From the NCBI RefSeq assembly GCF_036365525.1, contig NC_090381.1, positions 88,281,257 to 88,345,256 of the forward strand: DNA of 64,000 nucleotides, written 5' to 3'. The notes under the pieces were generated by a model. That model worked only from the letters and a program-made list of their open reading frames with translations, searched no databases and was not told the DNA's origin. This DNA comes from Heterodontus francisci. Its lineage: Eukaryota. This document shows positions 1,775-57,505 of the stretch, in pieces (within the stretch, counting starts at the first letter, position 1; each line of letters starts with the position of its first letter). The position numbers were made by a program, and so were the translations under genes.

Positions 1775-3933
1775 TCAAAGTGGCCAAAGTGGACTGGGAG
1801 CAGCTACTTGTAGGAATGTTTACATCAGACCAGTGGGAGTCATTCTAAGAGGAAATGGTGAGAGTTCAGAGCCAACATGTACCTGTTAAGGAGAAGGGTA
1901 GGACGAACAAGTCCAGGGAACCCTGGATGTCAAGGGATATAAAGGATTGGATCAGGAAAAAAAAGGAGGCTTATGGCAGATTCAGAGCGCTGAAAACAGC
2001 GGAGGCCCTAGGAGTATCGAAATTGTCGGGGGGGTACTTAAAAAAGTAATTAGGACAGCGAAGAGGGGACATGAAAAAACACTGGTGGGCAAGATAAATG
2101 AAAATCCTAAGGCATTTTGTAAGTATATTAAGGACAGGATAAGCAGGAAAGAGTAGGGCCCATTAGGGACCAAGTGGCAATCTGTGCTTAGAGCCGGAGG
2201 ATATAGGTGAGGTTTTAAATGATTACTTTTCATTCTGTGTTCACTATGGAGAAGGACAATGTAGGTGCAGAGATCAGGGAGGGAGATTATGATATACTTG
2301 AACATATTAGTATTGAAAGGGAGGAAGTATTAGCTGTTTTAGCAGGCTTAAAAGTGGATAAATCCCCAGGCACAGATGAGATGTATCCCAGGCTGTTATG
2401 TGAGGCAAGGGAGGAGATAGCAGGGGCTTTGACACAAATTTTCAAATCCTCTCTGGCCAGAGGAGAGGTACCAGAGGACTGGAGGACAGCGAATGTGGTA
2501 TCATTATTCAAGAAGGGTAGCAGGGATAAACCAGGTAATTACAGGCCGATGAGTCTAACATTGGTGGTTGGGAAACTATTACAAAAAATTCTGAGGGACC
2601 GGATTAATCTCCACTTGGAGAGTCAGGGATTAATCAGGGATAGTCAGCATGGCTTTGTCAGGGGGAGATCGTGTCTAACTAACTTGATTGAATTTTTCGA
2701 GGTGGTGACGAGATGTGTAGATGAGGGTAAAACAGTTGATGTAGTCTACATGAACTTCAGTAAGGCTTTTGATAACATCCCACATGGGAGATTGGTTAAG
2801 AAGGTAAGAGCCCATGGGATCCAGGGCAATTTGGCAAATTGGATCCAAAATTGGCTTAGTGGCAGGAGGCAGAGGGTGATGGTCGAGGGTTGTTTCTGCG
2901 AGTTGAAGCCTGTGACCAGTGGTGTACCACAGGGATCGGTGCTGGGACCCTTGCTGTTTGTAGTGTACATTAATGATTTAGACGTGAATATAGGAGGTAT
3001 GATCAGTAAGTTCGCAGATGACACGAAAATTGGTGGTGTCGTAAGTGGTGAGGAGGAAAGCCTTGGAGTACCGGAGGATATAGATGGGCTGGTAAAATGA
3101 GTAGAGCAGTGGCAAATGGAATTTAAGCCTGAGAAGTCTGAGGTGATGCATTTTTGGAGGACTAACAAGGTAAGAGAATATACAATGGATGGTAGGACCC
3201 TAGGTAGTACAGAAGGTCAGAGGGACCTTGGTGTACTTATCCATAGATCACTGAAGGCAGCAGCACAGGTAGATAAGGTGGTTAGGAAGGCATATGTGAT
3301 ACTTGCCTTTATCAGCCAAGGCATAGAATATAAGAGCAGGGAGGTTATGATGAAGCTGTATAAAATGCTAGTTAGGCCACAGCTGGAGTACTGTGTACAG
3401 TTCTGGGCACCACACTATAGGAAGGATGTGATTGCACTGGAGAGGGTGCAGAGGAGATTCACTAGAATGTTGCCTGGGCTGGAGCATTTCAGCTGTGAAG
3501 AGAGACTGAAAAGGCTAGGGTTGTTTTCCTTAGAGCAGAGAAGGCTGAGGGGGGACATGATTGAGGTATACAAAATTATGAGGGGCATTGATAGATTAGA
3601 TAGGAAGAAACTTTTTTCCTTGGTGGAGGGGTCAATAATCAGGGAGCATAGATTTAAGGTAAGGGGCAGGAGGTTTAGAGGGGATTTGAGGAAAACTTTT
3701 TTCACCCAGAGGGTGGTTGGAATATGGAACACACTGCCTGAAGAGGTGGTAGAGGCAGGAACCATCACAACATTTAAGAAGTATTTAGATGAGCACTTGA
3801 AACATCATAGCATACAAGGCTGTGGGCCAAGTGCTGGAAAATGGGATTAGAATAGTTAGGTGCTTGATGGCTGGCACAGACACAATGGGCCGAAGGGCCT
3901 GTTTCTGTGCTGTATGACTGAGTTTATGACTCA
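1775..3933 (+). mobile_element. CR1/L3 LINE, 5'-truncated ORF2 (RT) plus 3' UTR
   Basis: ORFs 2219-3100 and 3116-3850 contain KSPGxDxMYPR, [25 protein letters not shown] and RPQLEYC. A TGA at 3098-3100 interrupts the frame. CR1-type tail ctgtatgact...tatgactc. Confidence 0.95.
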
Positions 3934-4029: not shown

Positions 4030-5630
4030 AACATAATATGCCAAATTGGGGATATCGTTAACACAACGGAAGAATGCAACAAAATGCAAGAATTATGCCA
4101 GGAAAAATGCAAGACATTAATAAACGTGCAATGTATTTGACTCTTAAATACCTTCTGAAATGGCCACTCAATCCAAGGGCAATTTGGGATGGGCAATAAG
4201 TGCTGACCTAGCCACGACGCCCACATCCTCCATGAACGAATAAAAAAAAAAGGACGTGTTATTAGCAAATTAATTTCTATATAGCTAAGTGTGAGGTGGT
4301 GCATTTTGGTAGCAAGTCTAAAGAGGCTAAATGCTGCTTGGATAATAAGAGTCTAATCTCTCCATATATCTGGCATGGACCTAGTGGGCTGAATGACCTC
4401 CTTCTGTACTGTAACCATTTCTATGAAATGAGGTAAAGGAGCAAAGGGCTCTAGGGGTACGAATGGGCTCTTAGGGTACAAATACACAAATCAACAAAGT
4501 AATGATATAAACAAAGTAATGATATAGGTTAATAAAGCCATAAAAAGGCAATCCAAGCACTGGGTTCATTTCTAGGTTGATAGAATTGAAATCAAGAGAA
4601 ATTACGTTAAACTTGTGTCAAATCTTGGTTAAACCATGTTTGAAGTACTGGGTATAGTTCTTCATATCTCCATACAATAAAAAGTATATCGGGGCAAAGG
4701 TGTAAAAAGATACACAAAGGTGATACTTATCAGGAAAGGCTGAACAGGCTGGCACTCTTTTTCCAGAAGTAAGAAGGCTAAGGGGTGACCTGATAGAAGT
4801 CTTTAAGATACTAAAAGGCTTTAATAGGATAGATGTAGAGAAAACATTTCCACTTGTGGGGGAGTCCAAAACGAGGGGCTGTAAATATGATAGGCACTAT
4901 TAAATCCAATAGAGAATTCAGGAAAAACTTCTTTACACAAAGAATGGTAAGAATGTGGAACCCGCTACTACAAGGAGTAGTTGAGGTAAATAGGATAGAT
5001 GCATTTATGGGGAAGCATATGAGGGAGAAAGGAATAGGAGTATATGCTAATCCTTCTTGGCATTTCTTCGCGGATGAAGATTTTGAGAAGGTTGTAGTCA
5101 AGCCTATCCATGACCGGCAGATTCTCCCACAGCGGATACAAGTGAAGGTGTAGTTGCTGCTGGGGGCAATTGGATCTATCCTTCTCCTCCTTTTCTCTTT
5201 CATGCTGGTTCTTCGCTCAGTCTCAAAGGTGTTTGTAGCCCTCCTGATGTAGCATCTCCAGACATCTCGATCTATGGCCTGCGCTTCCCACTGACGATGG
5301 TCGATGTGGCACACCGAAATGGACTTCTTCAGGGACTACTTGAAACGTTTACATGGGGCCCCGCTGTTCCTTTTACCCGTGGTCAGCTCTCCATACAACA
5401 CGATCTTGGGCAGGCGACTGTTGTCCATCCGGGCAACGTGACTCGCCCAATGCAGTTGGCTTTGCAGGAGGATGGCCTCGATGCTGGTGATGTTGGCTGT
5501 TTCCAGGACTATATGCTAATAGGGTTAGATGTAAAGGGGTGGAAGGAGGCTTGTATGCAGCATAAACATCAGCTTAGACCAGCAGGGCTGAATGGCCTGT
5601 TTGTGTGCTGGAGGTTCGATGTAACTCAAT
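4030..5630 (+). mobile_element. Old degraded CR1 3' fragment interrupted by a SINE piece (4138-4252) and an RTE
   Basis: Remnant FRKNFFTQRMVRMWN motif in ORF 4854-5153. CR1 3' UTR gggctgaatggcctgttt near 5586. Confidence 0.75.
5052..5509 (-). mobile_element. RTE-clade LINE 3' fragment
   Basis: Minus-strand ORF 4811-5314 contains WEAQAIDRDVWR and CxxCGRxCRSxIGL, typical of the RTE C-terminus. Exact 11-bp TSD tatatgctaat at 5041-5051 and 5510-5520. Confidence 0.85.
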
Positions 5631-10467: not shown

Positions 10468-10847
10468 TTTTTTTAATTCATTCATGGGATGTGGGTGTCA
10501 CTAGCATTTATTGCCCATCCCTAATTGCCCTTGAGAAGATGATGGTGAGCTTAAATACAACTGTGTGGCTTGCTAGGCCATTGCAGAGTCAACCACATTG
10601 CTGTGGATTTTGAGTCACATTTAGGCCAGGACAGCAGATTTCCTTCTCTAAAGGGCATTAGTGAACCAGATGGGATCTTACAACAATCCGGTAGGTTCAT
10701 CGTTTTTTAAAATCCTGATTTAGTCAATTAATTGAATTTAAATTCCCCCAGCTGTCATGGTGGGATTTGAACTCACGTCACTAGATCATTAGTCCAGGCC
10801 TCTGGATTACCAGTTCCATAACATAACCACTATGCTACTGTTCCCCC
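10468..10847 (-). mobile_element. tRNA-headed SINE-like element sharing head and tail with the 34148-38016 LINE
   Basis: Minus strand reads head ggggaacagtagcatagtgg...gagttcaaatcccacc, then core ggaaatctgctg...tgtgactc, then tail aagggcaattagggatgggcaataaatgc. Confidence 0.8.
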
Positions 10848-13194: not shown

Positions 13195-16100
13195 AAACAA
13201 AAGCAAAATACTGCAGATGCTGGAAATCTGAGATAAAAACAAAAAGTGCTGGAAAATGCTCAGCAGGTCTGGCAACAGCTGTGGAGAGAGAAGCAAAGTT
13301 AATGTTTCAGGTCAGTGACCTTTCACCAGAACTGGCCAAGGTTAGAAATGTAATAGGTTTTACGCAAATAAAGTGGGGGTGGAGCAAAAGGGAACAAAAG
13401 GGAAGGTGTTGATAGCACATAGGGTCACAGAGAATAAATGACAAGGAAGTCATGGGCAAAGGCAAAGAGTGTGTTAATAGTGTGGTAAAAGACAAAGCGT
13501 TAGTGCAAAGAGGGTGTTAAATGACAGAATAATGAAAGCCATGGCCAAAAGAACAAACATGAAAAAAAGTGGGCAGGCACATGGTAAAAAAAAAGGAATG
13601 ATGAAACAAAAATAATGTCCTGTGTAATGAGACAGGAATAATTAATGACCTCATAGTTAGAGATCCTCTTGGAAGGAGTGATCACAGTATGGTTGAATTT
13701 AGAATACAGATGGAGAGTGTGAAGATAAAATCTAATACCAGGGTCCTGCGCTTGAACAAGGGGGACTACAATAGAATGAGGGAGGACTTGGCTAAAGTAG
13801 ACTGGAAACAAAGATTTTATGGTGGGACAGTTGACGAGCAGTGGAGGACTTTCAAAGCAATTTTTCAAAGTGCTCAGCAAAAGTATATTCCAGTGAAAAG
13901 GAAGGACTGGAAGAAAAGGGGTAATCTGCCATGGGTGTCTAAGGAAATAAGGGAGACTATCAAATTGAAAGAGAAGGCATACAAAGTGGCCAAAAGCAGC
14001 ATGAAACTAGAAGCTTGGGAAAACTTTAAAGGTCAACAGAAAGCCACAAAAAGAGCTATAAAGAAAAGTAAGATAGAACATGAGAAAAAACTAGCACAGA
14101 ATATAAAGACAGAAAGCAAAAGTTTCTATAAATATATAAAATGAAAAAGAGTGGCTAAAGTAAACGTTGGTCTTTTAGAGGATGAGAAGGGGAATTTAGT
14201 TATGGGATATGATGAAATGGCCGAGGCATTGAACAGGTATTTTGTATCGGTCTTCACAGTGGAGGACATTAATAACATGCCAGTAATTGACAAAGAGACA
14301 AACGTAGGTGAGGACCTGGAAACAATCATTATTACGGAAGAGGTAGTGTTGGGCAAGCTAAAGGAGCTAAGGATTGATAAGTCTCCTGGCCCTGATGGAA
14401 TGCATCCCTGGGTACTAAAAGAGATGGCGAGCGAAATAGCAGGTGCACTGGCGGTAATTTTCCAAAATTCGCTGGACTCTGGGGTAGTCCCAGCTGATTG
14501 GAAAACAGCAGATGTGACACCAATGTTTAAAAAGGGAGGTAGACAAAAGATGGGGAATTATAGCTTAACCTCTGTAGTGGGGAAGATGCTTGAGTCTATT
14601 ATCAAGGAAGAAATAGCAGGGTATCTCGATAGAAATTGTCCCGTTGGGCAGACGCAGCATGGGTTCATGAAGGGCAGGTCATGCTTGACAAATCTTTTGG
14701 AATTCTATGATGACATTACGAGCAAGGTGGACAATGGGGACCCAGTGGATGTGGTGTACCTAGATTTCCAAAAGGCCTTCGACAAGGTGCCGCACAAGAG
14801 GCTGCTGCATAAGATAAGGATGCATGGCGTTAGGGATAAAGTATTAGCATGGATAGAGGATTGGTTGACTAACAGGAAGCAGAGAGTGGGGATAAATGAG
14901 TGCTATTCTGGTTGGCAATCAGTCACTAGTGGTGTGCCTCAGGGATCGTGTTGAGACCGCAATTATTTACAATTTATATAGATGATTTGGAGTTGGGAAC
15001 CACATGTAGGGTGTCAAAGTTTGCAGATGACACTAAGATGAGTGGCAGAGCAAAGTGTGCAGATGACTGTGAAACTTTGCAGAGGAACATAGATACGTTG
15101 AGTGAGTGGGCAAAGGTCTGGCAGATGGAATACAATGTTAATAAATGTGAAGTCATTCATTTCGGTAGGAGTAACAGTAAAAAGGATTATTACTTGAATG
15201 GTAAAAAGTTGCAGCATGCTGCTATGCAGAGGGACCTGGGTGTCCTTGTGCATGAATCGCAGAGTGGTCTGCAGGTATAGCAAGTAATTAGGAAGGCAAA
15301 TGGAATGTTGTCCTTCATTGCTAAAGGGATTGAGTTTAAAAGCAGAGAGGTTATGTTGCAGCTGTATAAGGTACTGGTGAGGCCGCACCTGGAGTACTGT
15401 GTGCAGTTTTGGTCTCCTTACTTGAGAAAGGATATACTGGCACTGGAGAGGGTGCAGAGGAGGTTCACTAGGTTGATTCTGGAGTTGAGGGGGTTGGCTT
15501 ATGAGGAGAGACTGAGTAGATTGGGATTATATTCATTGGAGTTCAGAAGAATGAGGGGGGATCTTATAGAAACATATAAAATCATGAAGGGAATAGATAA
15601 GATGCAAGTAGAGAGGATGTTTCCACTGGCAGGTGAAGCTAGAACAAGATGGCATAGCCTCAAGATTAGAGGGAGCAGATTTAGGACTGAATTAAGAAGG
15701 AACTTCTTCACCCAGAGGGTTGTTAATCTATGGAATTCCTTGCCCAGTGAAGTAGTGGACGTTTCTTCAGTAAACTTTTTTAAAGCTAAGGTAGATATCT
15801 TTTTGAACAATAAAGGAATTCAGGGATACGGTGAGAGCGCGGGTAAGTGGATCTGAGTCCACGAAAAGATCAGCATTGATCATATTGAATGGCGGAGCAG
15901 GCTTGAGGGGCCGGACGGCCTACTCCTGCTCCTAGTTCTTATGATAAAATGAAGTAAAAATTTTTAAAAAGTGGAACTAAAAATAAATAAGTGGGGCCCC
16001 GTCATGCTCTTAAATTATTGAACTCAATGTTCACGCTGTAGCGTGCCTAATCAGTAAATGAGGTGCTGTTGCTCGAGCTTGCGTTGGTGTTCACTGGTAC

Positions 16101-26798: not shown

Positions 26799-27949
26799 GT
26801 AAATGACAGAACAAATCAGCAAATGTCATCTCTTTGTTTAACAGTGCAAATTGTGACCTGTAACAGAAATTAAAATCTGGAGCCTTTTTAATGTTATGAA
26901 ACAAAGGACAAGAGATTATAAGTGTGGGATGGGACATCATGATAGGATGTTGGCTTACATCTAGTTTGCCTTCCAGCGTCCTGATAGACATGTGATACAA
27001 CAATATCGCAGTTGTTGACTAATACAGCAAATCAATCTATCAATTAGTCCACTGCAGACCCACCCAGAAGGGAAGGAAAGTCCCCAGAGATAGAAAGCTT
27101 TGAGAACCATTGGTACAAAGTCACCTGTTCCTCCAAAGCATTCTACAGTTACTATATGCCATGTCTCAAATTACTTACATGCTGCATCCCAAAATATTTT
27201 CTGAAATAAATCTATCTAATTTGCATTTGAATTAATCAATACTTTCTGCTTCCACCATCTCCCAAGGGAGCCTGTTCTATAGATTGACCGCCCCCACTTT
27301 AATAATGCTTCCGCAGATTTGTTTTGAATTAACCCCCCCACTATGCCCCCCTCCCCCCGCCCCCTCTTCAAGTGCAGGCCATTTTTAATCAACTGTAACT
27401 CCAAACAATGGCACAAGCAATTCCCTTCCTAACAGCATGGCATGTGTACCTACAACACATGAACTGCAGCGGTTCAAGAAGGCAGCTCACCACCACCTTT
27501 TCAAGGGGAATTAGGGATGGGCAATAAATGCTGGCCTTGCCAGAAACATTCACATCCCAAGAAAAAAACAGTTTTAACAAACCCTCTCCGTGAAACTAAT
27601 AGCGTCATTTGACAGTTTTTGTGTTGTTTATTGCCCCACTGATAGCAAGACAGAAGAAGTTAAACAGATGTCAAATGTCTCAGCCACAGCTAACTGGTCT
27701 ATTTTAAAGCACATTATTCTCCCACTATCTAAAATCATTTCAAAGGATGAATAGAATATAGTAATATTATTTTTCGAGACATGATGGAGCTCTGCTTCTG
27801 TTAACACAAGTCTCCTCCCAACTAGTAAGCTGTAAGTGCTATTACGTCAGTGAGTGCCAAATGTTTTGTGGCAAAACCCTTAAAAATTTCAGAAGTTACT
27901 ATGATAGCACACTGAGATGGTCTGCCATTGGGAAAAAGGAAAGGACAGG

Positions 27950-29121: not shown

Positions 29122-30318
29122 ATCATAGGCTCATAGAAAGTTTACAGCTCAGAAGGTGGCCATTCGGCCCATCATCTCTGTGCTGGCTCTCTGCAACAGC
29201 AACTCACCTAGTCCCATTCCTTGGTCTTTTTCCCATAGCCCTGAATTTTGTTTCTCTTCAAATAATTGTCCAATTCTCTTTTGAAGGCCTTGATTGAATC
29301 TACCTCCACCACATTTTTCAGGCGGAGCATTCCAGATCCTAACCACTCGCTGTGTAAAAAAGTTTTTCCTCTTGTCGCCTCTGGTTCTTTTGTCAATCAC
29401 TTTAAATCGGTGTTCTCTGGTTCCGGATCCTTTGGGAACAATTTCTCCCGATCTACTCTGTCCAAACCCGTCATGATTTTGAACACCGCTATCAAATCAC
29501 CTCTTAATCATCTCTTCTCCAAGGAGAACAACCACAGCTTCTCCAATCTATCCACGAAACAGAGGTTCCTCATCCCTGGAACCATTCTCGTGTATCTTCT
29601 CTGCACCATCTCTAATGCCTTAACATCCTTCCCAGAGTGTGGTGCCCACAACTGGGCACAATATTTCAGTTGAGGCCAAACCAGTGTTTTATTACAGGTT
29701 TATCATAACTTCCTTGTTCTTGTATTCTATGCCCCTATTTATAAATACCAGGATCCTGTATGTCTTATTAACCACTTTCTCAACATGCTCTGCAACCTTC
29801 AATGATTTGTGGACATATATTCACAGGTCCCTCTGCTCCTGCATCCGCTTTAGAACTGTATCCTTTAATTTATATTGCCCCTTCTTGTTCTTCCTACCAA
29901 AATGAAACACTTCATACTTTACTGCATTAAATTTAATTTGCCACTTGTGCACCCATTCCACCAGCCTGTCTATGTTCTCTTGAAGTTTATCGCTATCTTC
30001 TTCACAGTTCACAATACTTCCAAGCTTTGTGTCATCTGCAAATTTTGAAATTGTGCCCTGTGTGCAGATGTCTAGGTCATTAATATATATCAAGAAAAGC
30101 AGGGGTCCTAGCACAGACCACTGGGAAACCCCACTATATTCCTTCCTCCAGTCTGAAAAACAACTGTTCAGAACTACTCTGTTTCCTGTCATTCAGCCAA
30201 TTTTGTATCCATGCTGCTGCTGTCCCTATTATTCCATGGGCTCTAACTTTGCTGACAAGCCTGTTATGTGGCACTTTATCAAATGCTTTTTGAAAGTCCC
30301 TGTTCACCACATCAATGC
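29122..30318 (-). mobile_element. CR1 LINE 3' fragment
   Basis: Minus-strand ORFs contain [23 protein letters not shown] and KNFFTQRVVRIWN. Confidence 0.9.
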
Positions 30319-31545
30319 TATTATTTTGTACAAAGACTATTTCCAGTCAACTTTATTAACCCTAAGTGGCACAAGTTCTTGGTCAACTGTAGATACTTTT
30401 TCAGGGTCAGCTGCATGAGTATTTTAATTTATTGGAGTTGACTCACACTACCCTACAATCTATTTGTAGAATAAAGTAACCCAGGAACGTTACCTTACTA
30501 TCCCCTTGTGACCTGGGCTGGATATTCACATCTTTTTCCACTGTGGTCCATCAGTTTCTCTCACAGTGGAACAAGCAAACACTTGCTGAGATTAGTGTTG
30601 ACATGAATCATTGGACTGGTTTATTTCAGAGTGCATGGACATACAGAGCAAGTTATGATGAAATTCCTTAGTTAATTGGTACATGTTCATAATATATTGA
30701 AAATAATAAATAAGCTACGCTTCCCCATTTCAGTGAGTAATCTTATTTGACTTAAATAATATATCTAACTGCTGTCCCTCACCACCTTCCCCCTCCCCGG
30801 CAACCCATTGTAACCATCTCACAATCTTTTCCTGGGCCTCACTAATTTGAAGATTTATGTTTTAAAAGCTTTGTCTACCAGTGCAGCATCCTGCTTCAAA
30901 AGCCTTTCTGCTTGTCTGTATCCCTGTCTCTATCTCAAATCTCTCTCTGTTCACAGCTATGAAAATAAATCAAAGACTTTACAATACAGTGATTGTAAGG
31001 TGTTTATCAATTACACAGAGAACCTAATGAATTGCTTATTATTTACAGTATATAAAGAAACATCGAAGTTGGCTCATTCGTATCTAAATTGTTTCTCTCT
31101 GAAACTTTTTTTAGCTGGAATGAATGCACTATGTTTTAGGACAGAGCATTTAAAGTAACAATTCTTCCAAATCATATCTGGAAAAACAGCGGAAAGATCC
31201 TGAAATGTGATAGACACACATCATGTTGACTATTCTAAAAGCAACTTTGAATTAAACTGATGAGAACTGGATTTGACCTGATTTGTATCTTTGAATGCTC
31301 CTATCACTTGACTAAATAGGCAATATACATGCTAGAATTGTCAAAATATCCCTCTGTACATGTTCAGTGTCTCATCGCCAGCTTCATGATGGTTGGCAGA
31401 CAGGTAGCTGAACAAGTCTGACAACTGGGGCTCCTGAATGAAAATATTTTGGTCTTACATACTGAGGTATTTTAAAAGAGTACTGTAAACTACATAATTT
31501 AATATATACTGTGGGGTTTTTTATCCTGATCAACTGTGGATCTTG

Positions 31546-33790: not shown

Positions 33791-34147
33791 GAAGAGGACA
33801 TGTTGGAAGCTCAAATATCTACTCTCTGCTACCAGTTGGAATGTAAATGTTTGCACGGTTCATGAAGGGCTCCAGTGACAGAAAACAATTAGTCTATTTT
33901 TCCGATCTCCCGTCCCAATTAGATTTTTGCATTTTTTTCTAGACTTTAATAATGACCACTCATATTTGATACATATGGCTTGAATATAATATCTTTGTGT
34001 CAACTCTGCTTTATATGTGGAAACACACTGGAGTTAAGAGGGAGTATTTCACTTATGGCTGTTTCTGTATAGATTGTAGGTTCTACTGTTAAACCCTATT
34101 TTTTTAATCCAGTAAATTGAGTTACATGTATATCCCCGGTAGGCTGA

Positions 34148-37100
34148 GGGGAGGTGGTGGCGTAATGGTATTGTCACTGGACTAGTAATCCAGAGACCAA
34201 GGGTATTGCTCTGGGGACATGGGCTTGAATCCCACCGTCGCAGAAGGTTAAGTTTGAATTCAATTAGTGAATCTGGAATTAAAAGCCAGTCTAATGATGG
34301 CCGTGAAACCATTGTCAATTCTCATAAAAACCCACCTACTTCACTAATGCCCTTTAGGGAAGGAAATCTGCTGTCCTTACCTGGTGTGGCCTACATGTGA
34401 CTCTAGACCTACAGCAAAGTGGTTGACTCATAAATTCCCTCTGAAACATATCAAACCGCTACAAAGTCAATAAGAAATGAAACAGGACGGACCACCCGGC
34501 ATCGACCGAGGCACCGGAAACGACAATGGCAAACCCAGCCCTGTCGACCCTGCAAGTTCCTCCTTACTAACATCTGGGGGCTGGTGCCAAATTTGGAAAA
34601 GCTGTCCCAAAGACTAGTCAAGCAACAGCCTGACATAGTCATACTCACAGAATCATACCTTAAAGCCAATGTCCCGGACACCGCCATCGCCAACCCTGGG
34701 TATGTCCTGTCCCACTGGCAGGATAGACCCACCAGAGGTGGTATACAATCGGGAAGGAGTTGCCCTGGGAGTCCTCAACAATGTCTCTGGACCCCATTAA
34801 GTCTCATGGTGTCAGGTCAAACTATGGGCAAGGAAACCTCCTGCTGATTACCACCTACTGCCCCCCACCCCCCTCAGCTGATGCATCGGTACTCCTCCAA
34901 GTTGAACACCACTTGGAGGAAGCACTGAGAGTGGCAAGGGCACAGACTGTACTCTGGGTGGGGGACTTCAATGTCTATCACCAGGAGTGGCTCGGTAGCA
35001 CCACTACTAATCGAGCTGGCCGAGTCCTAAAGGAGATAGCTGCTAGACTGGGTCTGCGACAGTTGGTGAGGGAAGACATACTTGACCTCGTCCTGTTGCA
35101 GATGCATCTGTCCATGACAGTATTGGTAGGAATGACCACCGCACAGTCCTTGTGGAGACAAAGTCCCGTCTTCACACTGAGGATACCCTCCATTGCATTG
35201 TGTGGCACTACCACCGTGCTAAATGGGATAGATATTGAACAGATCTAGCAACTCAAAACTGGGCATTCATGAGGCGCTGTGGGCCATCAGCAGCAGCAGA
35301 ATTGTACTCAACCACAATCTGTAACTTCATATCCCCCACTCTACCATTACCATCAAGCCAGGAGACCAACCCTGGATCAATGAAAAGTGCAGGAGGGCAT
35401 GCCAGGAGCAGCACCAGGCATACCTCAAAATGAGGTGTCAACCTGGTAAAGCTACAACCCAGGACTACTTGCATGCCAAACAGCGTAAGCAGCATTCAAT
35501 AGACCAAGCTAAGCGATCCCACAACCAATGGATCAGATCTAAGCTCTGCAGACCTGCCACATCCAGTCATGAATGGTGGTGGACAATTAAACAACTAACT
35601 GGAGGAGGTAGCAACACAAATATCCCCATCCTCAATGATGGGGGAGACCAGCACATCAGTGCAAAAGATAAAGCTGAAGCATTTGGAACAATCTTCAGCC
35701 AAAGTGCCAAGTGGATGATCCATCTCGGCCTCCTCCTGAAGTCCCCAGCATGACAGGTGCCAGACTTCAGCCAATGCGATTCACTCTGCGTGATATCAAG
35801 AAATGACTGAAGGCACTGAATACTGCAAAGGCTATGGGCCCTGACAACATTCTGGCAACAGTACTGAAGACCTGTGCTCCAGAACTTGCAACACACCTAG
35901 CCAAGCTCTTCCAGTACAGCTACAACACTGGCATCTACCTGGCAATGTGGAAAATTGCCCAGGTATGTGCTGTACTCAAAAAGCAGGACAAATCCAACCC
36001 GGCCAATTACCGCCCCATCAGTCTACTCTCGATCATCAGTAAAGTGATGGAAGGTGTCATTGACAGTGCTATCAAGAGGCACTTGCTTAGCAATTGAAGT
36101 GATTTATGACTTTAACCCCTTATACAGACTAAACCAAATCAGGAGTACATTCCTATAAATCTCCTTTAATTAAATTCAGACTAGACAAATTCTTATAGAC
36201 ACTGAATTGCGTCCAAAGAATTGAACTAGTTTTCTCTCAAAGAAAGAAAACCAACAGAGAATATTACCATCTTTTGGATAGCCTATTTTAAAATAATTAT
36301 GGCGAAGTCATAAATATCCCAGATATTATAAGGGTCTGGGAAACTCTCTCAAATACGTATCTCTCCACGTTTCTCTCTATAATAGTCTTTTTTATGGTAG
36401 CTTGAACTCTCTTTGTGGGTCAATCCATCTACATTTACCAACACCATCAATTAATTAAATTTATGACTAGCTTTAACTGATGTCACACAGGACATTTCAA
36501 TGTGTGTTTATCCTCTAATTCCCTGGCAACACTGAAATGGATTTCCCAACTTAAAAGGTATTTCTGGTACACATTCTATTGTAACAGGGACCTTGAAATT
36601 TTTAACTCTACCTTCTTAAAGGGGAATGTCAGTGAGTCTTGAAAACTGACCATTTATTCAACCTCTAATTCTAAAAGTTATAACATATTAAATATATCTA
36701 AATTCTACCCAATTAAGCCTATTATACCTATATTCCATCACACAATAACCTGCTTGGTGATGCTCAGTTTGGGTTCCACCAGGGCCACTCAACTCCTGAC
36801 CTCATTACAGCCTTGGTTCAAACATGGACTAAAGAGCTGAACTCCAGAGGTGAGGTGAGAGTGACTGCCTTTGACATCAAGCATTTGACTGAGTATGGCA
36901 TCAAGGAGCCCTAGCAAAACTGGAGTCAATGGGAATCAGGGGGAAAACTCTCCACGTTTGGAGTCATATCTAGCGCAAAGCAAGATGGTTGCGATTGTTG
37001 GAGGTCAATCATCTCAGCTCCAGAACATCACTGCAGGAGTTCCACAGGGTAGTGTCCTAGGCCCAACCATCTTCAGCTGCTTCATCAATGATCTTCCTTC

Positions 37101-38016
37101 AATCATAAGATCAGAAATGGGGATGTTTGCTGTTGATTGCACAATGTTCAGCACCATTCACGACTCCTCAGATACTGAAGCAGTCGTGTAGAAATGCAGC
37201 AAGACCTGGACAATATCCAGGCTTGGGCTGATAAGTAGCAAGTAATATTTGCGTCACACAAGTGCCAGGCAATGAGTATCTCAAACAAGAGAGAATCTAA
37301 CCATCTCCCCTTGACATTCAATGGCGTAACGATCGCTCAATCCCCCACTATCAACATCCTGGGGGTTACCATTGACCAGAAACTGAACTGGAGTAGCCAT
37401 ATAAATACTGCAGCTACAAGAGCAGGTCAGAGGCTAGGAATCCTGCAGTGAGTAACTCACCTCCTGACTCCCTGAAGCCTGTCCACCATCTACAAGGCAC
37501 AAGTCAGGAGTGTGATGGAATACTCTCCACTTGCCTGGATGGGCACAGCTCCAACGACACTCAAGAAGCTTGACACCATCCAGGACAAAGCAGCCCGCTC
37601 GATTGGCACCCCACCTTCAACATTCACTCCCTCCACCACTGACGCACTGTGGCAGCAGTGTGTACCATCTACATGATGCACTGCAGCAACGCACCAAGGC
37701 TCCTTAGACAGCACCTTCCAAACCCACGACATCTACCACCTAGAAGGACAAGGACATCAGATGCATGGGAACACCACCACCTGCAAGTTTGCTCCAAGCC
37801 ACACACTATCTTAACTTGGAACTATATCGCCATTCCTTCACTGTCTCTGAGTCAAAATCCTGGAACTCCTTTCCTAACAGCACTTGGGTATACCTATTCC
37901 ACATGGACTGCAGCAGTTCAACAAGGTGGCTCCACCTTCTCAGCAGCAATTAGGGATGGTCAATAAATGCTGTCCTAGCCAGCGATGCCCACATCCCCTG
38001 AACAAATAAAAAGAAA
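34148..38016 (+). mobile_element. Full-length single-ORF APE-RT LINE (CR1-Zenon/L2 group) with a tRNA-derived 5' head; decayed
   Basis: APE motifs NIWGL, PDIVILTESYL and WVGDFNVYHQEWLGS. RT motifs [29 protein letters not shown] and YKAQVRSVMEY. A box at 34158-34168 and degenerate B box at 34222-34232. Flanking gctga at 34143-34147 and 38017-38021. Confidence 0.85.
36095..36742. mobile_element. AT-rich TG..CA insert (solo-LTR-like) inside the LINE RT
   Basis: Exact 4-bp TSD caat at 36091-36094 and 36743-36746. Removing the insert restores the host frame HLLSN-NLLGDAQFGF. Confidence 0.75.
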
Positions 38017-38789
38017 GCTGATAACTGAGACCTGGTCAGGCTCTGCTGAAGATCGAGGAGCCTTTTTTCACATGTCTGATATTTTAGATGGTTGCTGTCT
38101 GAATAGTGTACAGTTCTCATAATTTATGGGGTGGATTTCCCTTTTTAACACCTATTCTTCAATGGTGTTGGGACACTAAAACCAGTAAAATGGAATAGTA
38201 TGTCTTATTGCTGCAAAAAATACTGCCCTAAAAAGTTGCAGCAAGATTCTTTCTCTGAAAAACCTCCAGTTTGCAGTACCATTCATGTAAAAAATCTCTC
38301 TCCCAACCCCTACCCTCACTGCATGTAAATAACACAACAACTTGTATTTATATAGCACCTTCATAGTATCAAAACGTCCTAAGGCGTTTCACAGGAGCAT
38401 GATAAAACAAAATATGACACCGAGTCACAAAAGGAAATATTAGGTCAGATGACCAAAAGCTTTGTCAAAGAGGTAGGTTTTAGGAGTGTCTTAAAGGAGG
38501 AAGGAGAGGTGAGGGAGGGTATTCCAGAGCTTGGGATCTAGGCAACTGAAGGTACTGCCTCCAGTCATGAAGTGATAAAAATCAGGGGTGCATTAACATG
38601 CGTAGTGTTAAGTCTACTACACAATGTGTTTCGTCCTTGGGGTACCTCACCAAGGTCAAAGCCAACCTGCTGTTTCTGCAGGAGTGTGGAATACCATACC
38701 TCAGCACCTACAGGCAATGGTTACGATGGTGTTCCCACGGGCCATCAATCTCCTCATGGGGAAATGATTCCCGTTCCTCTGGCCTGGAT

Positions 38790-39115: not shown

Positions 39116-39488
39116 ACCCACTGTGTGGAGGCAACCTCACCATCTCCGAAGTTAGCAAGGTGGTAGGTAGTCGCCTCCTCGTAACAGATGTAATGTACAA
39201 CAATGCTCCACTCCGGTTAATCAACGTGTACACCCCAGTTCAATACAGTGGGAGGCTGACTGTCCTCCAGCAGCTCCCAGAGCTGCTGGCGACGTCCAGG
39301 CTAGTCATTCTAGGCAGTGACTTCAACTGCATCATCGACATGGCTCGATGATTTAGCAGGGCCAACAGCCAAATGGATGCCACATCCAGACTCCTGATAG
39401 AAACAATAAAAGATGCCAAGCTGCACGATGTCTTCAGCAGCCCTGCAGACAGACCGCAGCATAGATACACCTGGTCAAGACCAGACGG

Positions 39489-40787
39489 TTTGAGTTAATT
39501 AAGGATAATCAGCATGGATTTGTAAAAGGCAGATCATGCTTGACTAATCTAATTGAATTTTTTGATGAAGTAACAGGGAAGGTTGATGGAATGCAGTGGA
39601 TTTTGTTTATATGGATTTGAAGAAAGTGTTTGATAAGGTGCCACATAAATGGCTGGTTAAGAAAATTGACGCTCCTGGCATAGGAGGGTCAGTGTCCAAC
39701 TGGATAAAAAAAAATTGGCTGAAGGACAGAAAACAACGAGTCATAGTAAATAGTTGCTTTTCAGACTGGAGGATGGTGGACAGTGGTGTTCCCCATGGGT
39801 CAGTGCAGGGACCACTGCTTTTTTGCTATATATATGAATGACTTGGATCTTGGAATACAGAGTAGAATCTCAAAATTTGCTGATGACACCAAAATTGGAG
39901 GTATGGCAAACAGTGAGGATGATATGAACAGCCTGCAAAAGGACATAGAGAGGCTAGCAGAATGGGCAGAGAGGTGGCAGATGGAATTTAATACTGACAA
40001 GTGTGAGGTGATGTATTTTGGCAGAACAAATAGGGAGAGGCAATATATACTTAATGGCACAGTTCTAAAGAGTGTGCAGGAACAGAGGGACCTGGAGGTG
40101 CATGCACACAGATCTTTGAAGGTGGCAGGGTATATTGAGAGAGTGGTTAGTAAAGCATGTGGGATCTTGGGCTTCATAAATAGAGACACTGAGTACAAAA
40201 GAAGGGAAATTATGCTGAATCTTTATAAAGCTCTGGTTAGACCCCAGCTGGAGTATTGCATCCAGTTTGGTCACCACACTTCAGGAAGGATGTGAGGGTC
40301 CTTGAGAGGGTGCAGAGGAAATTTGCCAGAATGGTTCCAGGGATGGAGGATTTTAGTTATAAGTTTAGGTTGGAAGAGCTGGGTTTGTTCTTGTAAGAAC
40401 AAGGGAAATTGAGGGGAGATTTAATAGAAGTGTATAAGATTATGACAGGCTTAGATAAGTTAGACAAGGAAAAATTGTTCCCATTAACAAATGGTACAAG
40501 GACTAGGGGACACAGATTGAAAGTTTTGGGCAAGAGATGCAGGGGGAATATGAGGAAGCACTTTTTTTTACGGTGCAGGTCGTTGACCTGGAACTTGCTG
40601 ACCACAGGGTGGTAAAAGCAGAGACGATCAATGACTTTGAAAGAAATTTGGATGGCCACCAGAGAGAAATACACTTGCAGGGCTACGGGGATCGAGCCGG
40701 GAGTGGGAATGACGGCATTAGCTCTGTGGAGAGCCAGCATGGACTTGATGGGCTGAATGGCCTCCTTCTGTGCCGTAAATGACTCTG
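39489..40787 (+). mobile_element. CR1 3' fragment nested in Tx1
   Basis: QHGF, FDKVPH, FADDTK and RPQLEYC motifs; CR1 tail. Tx1 APE sequence resumes after 40787. Confidence 0.9.
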
Positions 40788-43700
40788 TGATGGGTTCGGC
40801 TGTTCCAGGATTGACTTCCTGTTTGTGTCCCGAGCGTTCATGTTCAGATCCACTGATGTCAAACCGATGTTATTCTCTGACCACTGCCTCCTACTGGCTG
40901 ACTGTCACTTACACGACTTGAGAGTTGGCAGGGGGACATGGAAGCTGAATATGAAACTGTTGACCCCAGAGAACATTGAGGAACTCAAAAGGGATTACAA
41001 AGGTTGGAGAACCATGAAACCCTTTTTTGAGTCCCAGACCGACTGATGGGAGCAATCAAGATGAACATCAAGAGGTTCTTCATCCTCACAGGGGTTCAAA
41101 GGAGAGAGAGACAGAAGGAAATGTCCCCACTCCAGAAAAGCATTGCAGAATCTGCTCTCCTTGCAGTCAACGGGGGTCTAGGTCAAGGAGGATCTCCAAG
41201 AGGTGAAGAACATCTTCCAATCCAGAGTCCACTCCATGGAGTAGGATGAGACCCGCTCATGCTTCTTCCTCAAAAAAGGTAAAGAGAGAGAGCTCTGTGA
41301 TCAGCAACCTGAAAGAAGAGGATTTGCTTGGTAACATCATCACAGTCAGACATACGAAGGATCAGCAAATCCTTTTATGCTGGGCTGTACGATGTGAAGC
41401 CCACAGCCAGCATGGCCTCCCAGTCCTTCCTGTCTTCTGTCATAGATGTCTTAGTACGCAGGAGAGTTTGGACAAATGGCGAGCTCTAGATGAGCTAACA
41501 AAGGCCGTCAGGTCCTTCGAGACGAATAAAACTGCTGGAAGCGACGGCTTACCAGTTGAGCTGTATTCGACTTTCTGGGACTGGATCGGCCCAGACCTGC
41601 TGGAAGTGTACGAGAGTATGCTTCTGGCCTGCCGCATGTCAGAATCCATGAGAAAGGGCATCATCACCCTCATCTACAAGTGGAAGGGGGAGAGGGCGGA
41701 AATCAGAAATTGGTGGCCCATTTCACTGCTTACTGTGGACTACAAGATTCTGTCCAAAGTCATCGCCAGTTGTATCAAGTCTGCTTTGGATTTGGTGATT
41801 CACCCTGATCAGACCTGCATTGTACCAGGCAGGAAGATCTCTGATAGCCTCACGCTACTCAGGGATACAATCCCCTATGTATGGGACAGGGGGGTGGACA
41901 CCTGCCTCATCAGCTTGGACCAGGAGAAGGCCTTTGACAGGATATCGCACACTGACATGATGGATGTGCTCTCCAAAATGGGGTTTGGGGAGGGAATTCA
42001 CAATTGGATCCAAATGCTCAACACAAACATCAGCAGCGCAGTCTCAAACAATGGGTGGGAATCAGAAAATTTTCCGATCAAATCTGGAGTCAGGCAGGGC
42101 TGTCCTTTCTACTCTGTCTTGTTTGTTGCTGCATCAAACATTTTGCTGAGTCCATCAGGAAGGATATGGGAATAAGAGTGGTGACAATCCCAGGCAACAG
42201 AGGCACTCAGGTCCCTGTACACGGATGATGTCACCATCTTCTGCTCGGATCCACTGTCAGTTTGTAGACTGATGAGTATCTACGACCAGTTTGAACTGGC
42301 CTCATAAACCAAAACCAAAGTAAATCATGGCAAGAGCAAGGCCATGTTCTTTGGGAAGTGGGCCAATCAATCCTTTGTCCTTGTTACCGTCAGATCAGAA
42401 TACCTGTATCTCTGAAAAAAAAAATACCTGAAGGTGCTGGGGATATGGCTTGGAGGGGCCAGGCATGCGCCAAAAACTGGAAGGAGCGAGCAGCCATGGT
42501 GAAACGGAAACTGGTCATGTGGGAATGGCGCTCCCTCCCCATTACGGGTAAGAACCTGGTCATCAGGTGTGAGGTGCTCTCGGTGATGCCATACGTGGTG
42601 CCATTCCTGCGCCATTGCGGTAACCTGAGCCATCTTCTGCTTTATCTGGAGATGGAAAGTGGACCGTATCCGCAGGGTCATGATGTTCAAACCTCGAGGT
42701 AAAGGGGGAAAATACGTATTCAACGTCATCCTCATCCTGATGGCTTCCTTTGTCTGTGGCTGCATCAAGCTGTGCATAGACCCCAGTACGCAAACACGAA
42801 GTGTCATTACTTGCTGAGGTTCTATCTGTCCCCGGTGTGGTGAAGGATGGGTCTGGCCATGTTGCCATGGAATGCTCCATTCAGTTGGATCATGCCGCAT
42901 CACCTGTCCCTCGTGGAAAAGTTCATGCAAAGAAACACCTTTGACCACAAGTCCATCAGGCAGTGATCTGCATGTAACATCCTTGAGGCCCTGCGGGAAA
43001 AGGAGATGGTAGATCGTGTTGGACGGTTCCCCGAGCAAACTGTCAAACTCATTTGGCAGAATGCCTCATCGCCAGAACTTTCAAACACGCACCAAGACTT
43101 GGCTAGTGGTGAGAAGGGCCTTTCCTGTCCTTCCTGCATGCCTGAAGTCTCACCACCTCTGCACACTACCCTTGAGGCGGCTGCAGTGGGGAAGAGACCA
43201 TCGTCCACCTCCTTCTGGAATGTGCCTTTGCAAAGCAGGTCTGGAAAGAGATGCAGTGATTTTTATCAAGGTTCATCCTGAGCAGCTCTGTAACACAGTG
43301 GGCAGTTCCCAGGGATGCACACTGAGATAAACATCAACAGCTGCTGAAGGACCATCAACCTGGTGAAAGGTGCACTTTGGTCTGCCTGAAACTTGCTGGT
43401 CTTCCAGTGCAAAGAGCAGTCGACGACCGAGTGTTGCAGAGTGGCACATTCCAAGGTCCAGGACTAAGTGCTGAGGGTGCACTAAAGCTTGGGGCAGCTG
43501 CTGCAAAGGCTCAATGGGGAAAGGCTGCTGTGTAATGTCCTCCAGCCATAGTATACCGAGGGTCTGGAACCTGTATAAAACCCCTCGGGCTGTGAACACC
43601 AGAGAATGTTTTTGGTAGGCAGTGCAAATGTAGTGTAAATACAATTTGGAATGGCAAGAGTAGTGAGGCACCTCGTACTGTATTGAAAGAATATTGTATT

Positions 43701-51799: not shown

Positions 51800-52186
51800 C
51801 TGGTGTAAAACTTTTACTGAACTAGTAATCCAGAAAAAATGACTTCAGATCCCCCTGGCTGTTTGAGAATTTGAATTCAGTTTTTAAAAACCTGGTATCA
51901 GTAAATGTGTTCATTGAAGCTGTTGGACTGTCATTAGAAACCCAACTGGTTCACAACCATCATTTAGGGAGGAACACTTGTCATCTTTACCTGATCTGGC
52001 CTATATTTAATCCAGTTCCACATCAACATGGTTGTCTCTTAACTGCCCTGTAGCCTAGCAAGCTATTCAGTTGTATCATACCACTAATCAAGAAGAAGGC
52101 CCGCTACCACTCTCTCAGGGCAACTATGAACTAAGAATAAGTGCTAATCCTGCCAGCTACACCCACAGCCTGAGAATGAATTAAAA
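51800..52186 (+). mobile_element. Degraded tRNA-headed SINE-like copy of the 10468/34148 family
   Basis: actagtaatccag head, tttagggaggaa...ctggcctata core, aagaaggccc...cagggcaact tail. Confidence 0.65.
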
Positions 52187-54801: not shown

Positions 54802-55229
54802 GTAGCTTTAATTTCATTGCAATGTTCGCTAACTCTACTTCTTATTATTGTCTTCCCCTTAAAATGCTTCCTATACCAGATACCAGACTGACTCCCAAAC
54901 ACCTGGCAGTTGTGCTTTACATGTAGCTATCACCAGATGAGTGACAGCAGTATGGATTAGCTTTGGCCTTTGATTTTTTTCTCGCCCCTCTGCAGAAAAG
55001 ACTGGAAATAGATAAATGTACTTCCAGTACTCAATGTAAGTGACAGAACCACAACTGGCAACTACAGCCTAAGCTCAACAATCAGAAAAATGAAAACATT
55101 AATAGCCAGATACAAAATGAAGAGTGCCTATATTAAAATAACAGCAAATGCCAGACAATCTAACCTCAGAAGGTGGTATAGATGCTATCAGGAGGGCATA
55201 TAAGTCATATAACAACTTCTATTATATAT

Positions 55230-57505
55230 GGTCTGAAAAGAGGTGGCTGCTGAGATCGTGGATACATTGGTTTTAAATTTCCAAAATTTCCCTAGATCCT
55301 GGAAAGGTCCATCAGATTGGAAAATAGCGAATGGAACTCTGCCATTCAAGAAAGGAAGAAGACAGAAAGCAGGAAACTACAGGCCAGTTTGCCTAACATC
55401 TGTCATAGGGAAAATGCTGGAATCTATTATTAAGGAGGTTATAGCAAGTCATTTAGAAAATCTCAATGCAATCAGGCAGAGTCAACATACTTTTGTGAAA
55501 GGGAAATCGTGTTTGACTAACTTATTAAAGTTCTTTGAGGAAGTAACAAGCTACGTGACTAAAGGGGATCCTGTGGATGTGGTGTACTTTGATTTCCAGA
55601 AGGCATTTGATAAGGTGCCACATCAAAGGTTACTAAAAAAAAAGAGCCCATGGTATAGGGGGTAACATATTAACATGGATAGAGGATTGGTTAACTAACA
55701 GGAAACAGACAGTAGGCATAAATGGGTCATTTTCAGGTTGGCAAGCTGTAACTTGTGGAGTGCCATAAGGATCAGTGCTGGGGCCTCCACAATTTACAAG
55801 CTATATCAATGACTTGGATGAAGGAGCAGAATGTATGGTTTCTAAATTTGCTGATGACACAAAGACAGGTAGGATAGTAAGCTGTGAAGTAGACATAAGG
55901 AGTCTGCAAAAGGATATAGGTGGGTTACGTGAGTGGGCAAAGATTTGGCAGAGTGTAATGTGGAAAAGTATGAGGTTGTCCACTTTGGCCGGAAGAATAG
56001 AAAAGCAACATATTATTTAAATGGAGAGAGATTGCAGAACTCTGAGATGCGGAGGGATCTGGGTGTCCCAGTACAAAAAACACAAAATGTTAGAATGCAG
56101 ATACAGCAAGTGATTAAGAAGGCAAATGCAATGTTGTAATTTATTGCAAGGGGAATAGAATATAAAAGTAGAGATGTTTTGCTACAGTTGTACAGGGCAT
56201 TAATGAGACCACATCTAGAGTATTGTGTACAGTTTTGGTCTCCTTACTTAAGAAAGGATATAATAGCATTGTAGGCAATTCAGAGAAGGTTCACTCGACT
56301 GATTCCTGGGATGAGAGGGTTATCTTATGAGGAAAGGTTGGACAGGTTGGGCCTGTATTCAATGGAGTTTAGAAGGATGAGAGGTGATCTTACAATCCTC
56401 AGGAGATTTGACAAGGTGGATGCTGAAAGAATGTTTCCCCTTGTGGGAGAAACTAAAACTAGGGGGCACAGTTTAAAAATAAGGGTCAGAGATTTATGGC
56501 CCCTGAACGAGCGGGCAGGTGGCCATAAAATTGAATGGCAGGCAGAGGGGACCCCGCCCGACGGCAATTTTACGCAAGCAGGCAGCGGCGAGGAACAGCC
56601 CACCTGCCGCAAGTCAATCAAAGCCCTTAAGTGGCCAATTAACTGTCACTTAAGGGCTTTCTCCCACCGCTGCTGGTATTTTAATTTTTATTAAAATACC
56701 ATCGGCAGCAGAACGGCACAGGCACCAAAGTACACCACCAGGTAAAACCTGGCAGCTTTAATGTGAGCAGGGTGGGGCCCCTCCTGATTGGGCACCCTGT
56801 GCCCATGGAGGGCCGCCCCCGAAGCCCCAACCGCCCCCACTGCACAACACTGACCCCTCACCCCCTAGAACTGCCACAAATGACCCCCCACCTTGCATCA
56901 CCGAGACCCAGCCGATTATCTCTGGCAAAGCCCCAAAAACTTACCATCTTTCAGGCGCCATCATCCTTTCTTGCTTCCGATGGCTAAGTGTAGACACAGC
57001 AGTGGCCACCGCTCCCGGTGGCACTGCTGGGACTAAGAGTTGCCGGCCCGCTGATTGGCCGGCAGCTCCATTAGGCAGGACTTCCTGCCTCGAAGAGGTG
57101 AAACCCCCACCCAAAGTCAATTATGGGCCTGGGGAGCGAAAAATTCCACTTGGGCTCTCCAGCCAAGTGGAGGCGGGTTTGCCCCCGACTTTACGGCCAG
57201 TGGGTGGGGCCTCCCGCTCAACGTAAAATTCCAGCCAAGGGGTCTCCCATTTAAGACAGAGATTAGGAGAAATTTTTTCTCTCAGAGGGTTGTGAGTCTG
57301 TGGAACTCTCTTCCCTGGACAGCAGTGGAGGGTCATTGAATGTTTTTAAGGCAGAGATAGACAGATTCTTGACAAACAAGGGAGTCAAAGGATATCAGGG
57401 ATCGTCAGGAAAGTGGAGTTGTTTCCACAAGCCATGATCTTATGGAATGGCACAGCAGACTCAAGAGGCCGAATAGCCCACTGCTGCTTCTAATACGTAT
57501 GTTAT
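55230..57505 (+). mobile_element. CR1 ORF2 3' part, interrupted by a MITE
   Basis: GNYRPV, YFDFQKAFDKVPH, FADDTK and RNFFSQRVVSLWNSLP motifs. Confidence 0.92.
56484..57236. mobile_element. GC-rich MITE-like element inserted in CR1
   Basis: The CR1 sequence aaaat-aag-gggtctccc is split with a duplicated aag (56481-56483 and 57237-57239). Confidence 0.75.

Follow-up and report, generated by a model that had tools for sequence, protein, structure and literature searches.

The window analysed here is a stretch of 64,000 nt from Heterodontus francisci (genome size 6.0 Gb; assembly GCF_036365525.1, contig NC_090381.1, positions 88,281,257 to 88,345,256 of the forward strand). Its positions 34148 to 38016 are occupied by a decayed copy of a long interspersed nuclear element (LINE) assigned by sequence to the elasmobranch Zenon family, whose 5' end is a tRNA-derived head with predicted promoter boxes of RNA polymerase III (Pol III). 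The head is followed by a leader, by one open reading frame (ORF) coding an APE endonuclease and a reverse transcriptase, and by a short 3' untranslated region (UTR) with an A-rich tail. The features of the element are the following:

34148..38016, + strand: full-length but decayed elasmobranch Zenon LINE of about 3.2 kb, enlarged by a later insertion of 648 bp; matches 15 other full copies at 88–90%
34151..34242, + strand: tRNA-derived head with D-like, anticodon, long variable and T arms, acceptor stem unpaired (ARAGORN, alignment)
34158..34168, + strand: predicted Pol III A box, TGGCGTAATGG; majority TGGCGTAGTGG in young copies and TAGCATAGTGG in old ones
34177..34193, + strand: anticodon-like stem-loop (sequence)
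34222..34232, + strand: predicted Pol III B box, degenerate in the window copy; majority GGTTCGAATCC in 41 young copies
34243..34457, + strand: leader body, family length about 230 nt, common to the LINE and to short elements (alignment)
34458..34568, + strand: a GCT codon that is conserved and a basic N-terminal extension, both in the APE frame; no in-frame AUG
34569..35245, + strand: APE endonuclease domain, frameshifted in the window copy (PF14529, E=1.8e-7; PF03372 weak)
35807..37450, + strand: reverse transcriptase region, broken and split by the insertion (PF00078, E=1.7e-6)
36095..36742, no strand assigned: later insertion, an internally deleted copy of an unrelated repeat of about 1.2 kb (32% GC, TG...CA-like ends, duplication of about 4 bp)
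37951..38016, + strand: ORF stop, short 3' UTR and A-rich tail common to short elements (sequence)
34143..34147 and 38017..38021, + strand: gctga, possible target duplication (5-bp matches occur in 6% of control pairs)

A preliminary description of this stretch, made from its letters alone, had reported the A box, the stem-loop, the degenerate B box, APE and reverse transcriptase without an ORF1, and the tail; all are found in the sequence at the places given there. ORFs and Pfam matches put the start of APE about 420 nt past the element start and the reverse transcriptase after it, with no ORF1. The window copy misses about 20 nt at the end of its leader, a segment that holds a terminal hairpin and a TAG in the family. 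The gctga repeat is present on both sides, as described, and is plausible as a target duplication; it is weak evidence, as most copies of the family have none. Among 28 full copies, flanking matches of at least 5 bp were found in 5 (control 6%) and of at least 6 bp in 4 (control 2%).

The element is one of a large family. A genome search with positions 34148–34700 gave 12,461 candidates, the best 40 of which all span nearly the whole query (one is the window itself) at 83–87% identity, self apart. The 5' ends of all 30 fetched loci fall within 6 nt of one point and their upstream flanks are unrelated. Recovery from head to tail was obtained in 15 of 20 extended loci, which are 2.8–3.6 kb long and 88–93% alike. 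A search with protein only, used to avoid bias from selecting on the head, led to 28 distinct loci. The same leader is found in 26 of them (17 with the head nearly whole, 9 truncated within head or leader), the remaining two are truncated further in, and an alternative leader was seen in 0/28. Genome-wide, the body-to-ORF junction was matched exactly, as a pattern, 6,475 times. Family copies have longest open frames of 993 codons and a leader of about 330 nt. Trees of leader and ORF, built for 27 copies (in two old rows the ORF part is short), display the same split between old and young copies (support 99–100) and the same youngest clade of six. Zenon-family sequences occur also in contigs of four organisms, with an identical 5' boundary in two. 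The junction of head and APE is therefore multi-copy, which disposes of the reservation in the preliminary description that it might be found at this locus only. The data support a multi-copy LINE that has the tRNA-derived head as its own 5' end; its head, leader and ORF are mobilised together and share one evolutionary history.

The identity of the family follows from comparison with published sequences. In the supplement of Stuart et al. 2026 (PMC13343379), five shark and ray species are represented by six Zenon consensuses; compared by eye only, the first 400 nt of these agree with the head and leader of the window copy. The tRNA head is present in the consensuses of all five elasmobranch species (CarCar, ScyCan, RhiTyp, HypSab, SquAca). 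Elasmobranch Zenon of that source is like the window family in head, body, TAG and N-terminus, measures 3.2–3.3 kb, has no ORF1 and ends in poly-A. These last two traits are those by which Zenon is recognized in the parts of PMC13343379 consulted, and the family shows both: a single APE-reverse transcriptase ORF without ORF1, and a poly-A tail. On this sequence evidence the family is the elasmobranch Zenon LINE of the CR1 group. In the hagfish and coelacanth Zenon rows of the same supplement, inspection of the first 400 nt by eye shows no apparent head. Because it is found in the five elasmobranch species and not apparent in those two rows, a single capture of the head before the split of sharks and rays is likely. 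The main text of PMC13343379 has no match for tRNA or polymerase III and one word-start match for 'sine'; the head, the avoidance of T-runs, the missing AUG and the derived short elements (see below) are absent from it. Among the titles and abstracts returned by literature searches, whose coverage is without most subscription papers and Repbase Reports, none describes a shark LINE with a Pol III head. The caution that the family might be already catalogued with this structure was half justified: its sequence is catalogued as Zenon, and its head is undescribed in that main text. The feature is thus real and ancient, catalogued as Zenon, with an architecture that is undescribed in the literature examined.

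More remote relatives of the ORF are numerous. Protein homologues are 30–47% identical and are mostly unnamed proteins of about 940 residues, the named ones including sponge and butterfly. In 80 metagenome loci of distant relatives (23–53% to the query) no blastn similarity to head or tail was seen (best E 0.08). ARAGORN with relaxed settings made 28 scattered tRNA calls in 22 of these 80 loci, only two of them (L086, L111) in sense orientation and upstream of an ORF; they were treated as noise. Note that one metagenome relative (L081:1–1075, 38% to query P0004) has a leader of about 1 kb with a duplicated motif of about 60 nt and no tRNA head.

The head is the only tRNA called by ARAGORN in the entire window (34151–34242); the Rfam tRNA model gives it only 17.4 bits (E=1). 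The preliminary description had called it tRNA-Thr(AGU)-like; an origin from that tRNA is not upheld. The isotype comparison was made with Ser(GCT) and Thr(AGT) only, using tRNA genes of the host genome: nine heads align to tRNA-Ser(GCT) with 49–57 identities in 82 positions (z 6.4–12.4) and to tRNA-Thr(AGT) with z 0–7.5, Ser(GCT) being higher in 9/9. The Zenon head also has a long variable arm. Of the two tRNAs, Ser(GCT) is the one that the head resembles more by alignment. The A and B boxes are kept across three age strata and in the consensuses of other species, and the D-like and variable arms have double-sided changes between strata. Note that a tRNA-Ser(GCT)-type pattern has 133 matches, many clustered on few G000 contigs (C35, C334, C712, C1323, C1395 and others), which suggests an amplified tRNA array; the Thr(AGT) pattern has 2, and the two patterns differ in strictness.

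Vertebrate Pol III terminates at runs of four or more T. The sense strand of the family has no fixed TTTT. Such runs are missing altogether from 10 of 16 copies and from 14 of 20 copies, and no TTTT site is common to more than 3 of 16 copies, while several A4 sites are common to 15–16. The 26 T-runs of 8 older copies are, without exception, private or within insertions. Fifteen family copies have 12 TTTT runs versus 77 expected; 10 other LINE remnants of the host genome have 52 versus 33 expected. In the Zenon ORF, TTT is at 0.20 of expectation and TTTT does not occur, to be compared with 0.78–1.79 for TTT and at least two TTTT runs in each of 42 related metagenome ORFs, three of which are GC-matched. 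Base shuffling gives P of about 0.003–0.01 for the lack of TTTT. The T-run signal is real but moderate. Since a tRNA-like promoter head coexists with avoidance of the T-runs that stop Pol III, this enzyme is the likely polymerase, and transcription of the full-length element by Pol III is rated as somewhat more probable than its absence. Note that other LINE-family remnants of the window (2243–3802, 13668–15805, 29320–30328 on the − strand, 39468–40600, 41483–42253, 55228–56487) served as T-run controls.

The leader lacks a conventional start of translation in most copies. There is no AUG ahead of the endonuclease in most of them, and the first in-frame Met after the TAG is usually 137–204 codons in. 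The ATG at 34477 was rejected as a start, being in the +1 frame and missing in copies of the old stratum. The TAG ahead of the long frame is found in 28 of 51 LINE leaders (GAG or CAG in 11, the rest mostly gapped) and in all six published Zenon rows (PMC13343379). GAG and CAG were considered as the ancestral state, opening an upstream AUG; they fit hypermutability of CTAG instead. The CTAG mutation rate in 31 young copies is 0.107 per site, versus 0.142 for CpG and above most other non-CpG contexts, with changes that are often T-to-G or T-to-C. A mini-frame AUG-GCC-UAG, sharing the frame of the ORF, prevails in the host genome. The TAG lies within the 7-nt loop (CUAGCAA) of a kept hairpin. 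The AGC of this hairpin is a possible pairing partner for an in-frame GCT, which 36 of 51 leaders have 12 nt downstream. In internal ribosome entry sites (IRES) of the dicistrovirus type, an anticodon-mimicking hairpin pairs with the codon that sets the frame. No covariation between hairpin and GCT was seen in the leader alignment. In the published consensuses (PMC13343379), examined by eye, the GCT is in ORF register in four species, two dogfish rows break the register, and one species favours a GCT-set frame over read-through.

The window also holds short elements that share head, body and tail with the LINE and resemble short interspersed nuclear elements (SINEs), together with a further Zenon fragment:

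10468..10847, − strand: short element with old-type head, body and tail (alignment, tree)
51814..52186, + strand: very decayed short element without a recognisable A box; LINE-only bases follow the body (noted earlier as 51800–52186)
4128..4252, + strand: 5'-truncated short element with a third body-to-tail junction (noted earlier as 4138–4252)
27419..27567, + strand: 3' fragment (5'-truncated copy) of the Zenon family (similarity to the window element)

The three short copies exist as the preliminary description had them, except that they do not share one body-to-tail junction: it differs in each. Full short copies of the family are about 390–420 nt long, numerous and non-coding, with a tRNA head bearing A and B boxes and a LINE-like tail. 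A body-to-tail pattern has 4,948 matches genome-wide; the first 30 have junctions of one type (17), of a second type (11) or longer (2). A search with the 10468 copy adds junction classes, which makes at least six classes of short elements versus one constant LINE junction. The tree of short elements and LINEs has 92 rows (51 LINE and 41 short, with 7 labels set by hand; left out were 3 ambiguous rows and 13 matches whose body end was not located). Each of its three head strata, which are separated by starred branches, holds LINEs and short copies. The starred branches force at least four changes, and monophyly of the short copies is rejected (p-AU 2.5e-121). Young short copies have the tail variant of the young LINE and old short copies have the old variant. 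LINE-only bases past the body are kept in three short copies (L070, L219 and the window copy at 51800). Being polyphyletic, and agreeing at either end with contemporary LINE subfamilies, the short elements are likely to be repeated internal deletions of the LINE; this is the most economical reading, and a similar origin has been proposed for Persaeus from Zenon. The two options put forward earlier, capture of a head by the LINE or derivation of the SINEs by deletion, are not exclusive: the head was likely captured once and the present short elements are likely internal deletions. The architecture of the element and the internal-deletion origin of the short elements are together considered highly probable. 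Note that the 51814–52186 copy is without a variable arm and may be of a further old class. Four loci (L219, L218, L177, L175) are intermediate deletion forms of the LINE of about 0.5–1.6 kb, with full head and tail, that appear as further single deletion events.

The explanation favoured here, with a confidence slightly above even, is that the window element is a dead copy of Zenon, a LINE transcribed end to end by Pol III from its tRNA-derived A/B-box head and giving rise to short repeats by recurrent internal deletion. One ancient capture of a tRNA-Ser-like head would have occurred by template switching. Pol III would start about 10–11 nt upstream of the A box and continue for 3.3 kb, as far as a T-run in the flanking sequence. 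Translation of this uncapped RNA would be independent of cap and AUG and would make use of the leader. Its protein product would perform target-primed reverse transcription on RNAs that carry the 3' tail. Short derivatives produced by deletion retain promoter and tail and would therefore behave as SINEs. The more ambitious formulation, in which Zenon is an autonomous retrotransposon whose 3.3-kb coding RNA is made by Pol III, translated free of cap and AUG via a tRNA-mimicking leader and turned into true SINEs by internal deletion, is advanced only tentatively and falls short of an even chance.

Several observations weigh against the favoured explanation. The significance of the lack of TTTT varies with the null model and is borderline under the strict ones: synonymous codon shuffling expects only about 2 TTTT runs (P=0.06–0.13), and dinucleotide shuffles of three TTTT-free copies give P=0.09–0.12. 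The copies share ancestry and are not independent tests of the lack of TTTT, most control ORFs are more T-rich than the Zenon family, and the scarcity of Phe is unexceptional (z −1.4). SINE-type Pol III transcripts are given as 100–700 nt long, a size ascribed to weak processivity, in the parts of PMC10886601 consulted. Sequence runs X15, X16, X17 and X19 cover the element as contigs only and are silent on start, strand and polymerase. The leader folds no better than shuffles (z −0.9 to +0.9). Some junction classes of the short elements could be derived from one another and not from the LINE.

The competing explanation that survives best, though still unlikely, is that the captured SINE head acts as an internal Pol II promoter or as a passive 5' UTR. 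The RNA would be capped, the ORF reached by re-initiation or read-through past AUG-GCC-UAG, and the lack of TTTT compositional. It gains from the codon-shuffle P of only 0.06 and from the in-frame mini-frame, which besides being the host majority is present in all six elasmobranch rows of the PMC13343379 supplement. The parts of PMC10886601 consulted describe non-LTR (long terminal repeat) elements as Pol II transcribed, and lepidopteran Zenon is without a tRNA head in those of PMC6740152. It leaves unexplained why the 5' end is so precisely placed, a short distance upstream of the A box, why both boxes are retained across strata and species, and why TTT is depleted, a trait absent from 42/42 relatives. 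In addition, the whale shark consensus in the same supplement has, by eye, a linker of 11 and not 12 nt, which puts the mini-frame out of the ORF frame.

A rather improbable scenario takes a free-standing SINE lineage as primary, with a LINE that re-acquired the head repeatedly by recombination and short elements that are not deletion products. In its favour, the oldest stratum sampled has 19 short copies and 7 LINEs (the query biases this sample), and template switching between SINE and LINE is proposed in PMC4824008. The congruence of leader and ORF trees contradicts repeated re-acquisition, and so do the constancy of the LINE junction, the variation of the short junctions and the presence of LINE-only bases in some short copies. 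For the very first capture, however, a SINE-first scenario may hold.

Less probable again is host Pol II co-transcription with cleavage of the tRNA mimic by RNase P, which would set the 5' end as ribozymes do in other LINE clades. In its favour, the D-like, anticodon, variable and T arms remain paired, and double-sided changes occur. The acceptor stem is however paired in only 9–49% of cells at the four offsets tested, the element 5' end lies 3–4 nt upstream of tRNA +1, and avoidance of T-runs would be needless. The base preceding the 5' end is a purine in 23 of 28 copies. Between RNase P cleavage and a primary Pol III start, this 5' end would be more in keeping with the latter. Stem and 5' end thus disfavour the tRNA-like 5' processing offered in the preliminary description as one role of the head. 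Finally, the idea that a LINE inserted into or recombined with a SINE by chance, at this one locus, has no observation in its favour and is refuted to near certainty by a junction present in thousands of copies and in the published consensuses of five species (PMC13343379, supplement).

The 648-bp insertion in the reverse transcriptase region has no counterpart in other Zenon copies. The inserted repeat lacks about 570 nt of its abundant, AT-rich parent of about 1.2 kb and has a solo-LTR-like appearance. The best 40 of its 4,016 candidate matches in the genome are at 85–91%, apart from self.

Systems related to the Zenon pair of LINE and short elements differ from it in defined ways, as far as the parts of the sources consulted allow comparison. 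Lepidopteran Zenon and Persaeus (PMC6740152) are likewise a single-ORF CR1-group LINE and the internally deleted short elements it yields, possibly several times independently; Persaeus lacks homology to tRNA as well as a Pol III promoter, and its 5' end is unrelated by eye. Bov-tA, AfroSINE and SINE2-1_ACar (Kojima 2018, PMC5786205) likewise join LINE 5' and 3' parts behind a tRNA head. In those cases only the short element has the head, and the LINEs involved belong to RTE or Vingi; here the autonomous LINE bears it. The same paper provides a printed precedent of a LINE with tRNA-like sequence, RTE-1_DAn and relatives, which are of the RTE clade and were removed as an unwanted match, position and function not being given in the parts consulted; it calls the origin of widely conserved SINE bodies unknown. 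Chimeras of LINE-1 with small RNAs or Alu (PMC13174262) have a small RNA joined to the LINE 5' end and are single insertions, while in Zenon the chimera is a propagating family. SINE2-1_CM, SacSINE1, HE1, MetaSINE and UCON3 combine a tRNA head and a LINE-like tail as the short elements do. MetaSINE heads are labelled tRNA-Thr-like; the Meta sequence differs by eye, and the 66-bp Meta domain was not encountered after the head in a comparison by eye with BivaMeta-SINE1 and BivaMD-SINE1 only. UCON3 has no motif match in the sequence. By their descriptions only, SINE2-1_CM (tRNA-Ala/CORE with L2 tail), SacSINE1 (a Deu SINE) and HE1 (a V-SINE) are set apart. The short family may correspond to some other catalogued SINE.

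In the usual view LINEs are Pol II transcripts and SINEs are short Pol III parasites. The association of a Pol III head with a full APE-reverse transcriptase ORF, in thousands of copies and kept across sharks and rays, makes two questions testable: whether vertebrate Pol III can make a long translated RNA, and what the source of SINE bodies is. If the element is transcribed by Pol III and translated via its leader, the divide between LINE and SINE would be removed here and the SINE body would gain a function, the start of translation. If the leader is a cap-independent start element, the head and leader would form a compact Pol III-plus-IRES expression module. If the polymerase is Pol II, Zenon would still be a clear case of a LINE lineage with a SINE-like head that produces SINE-like derivatives.

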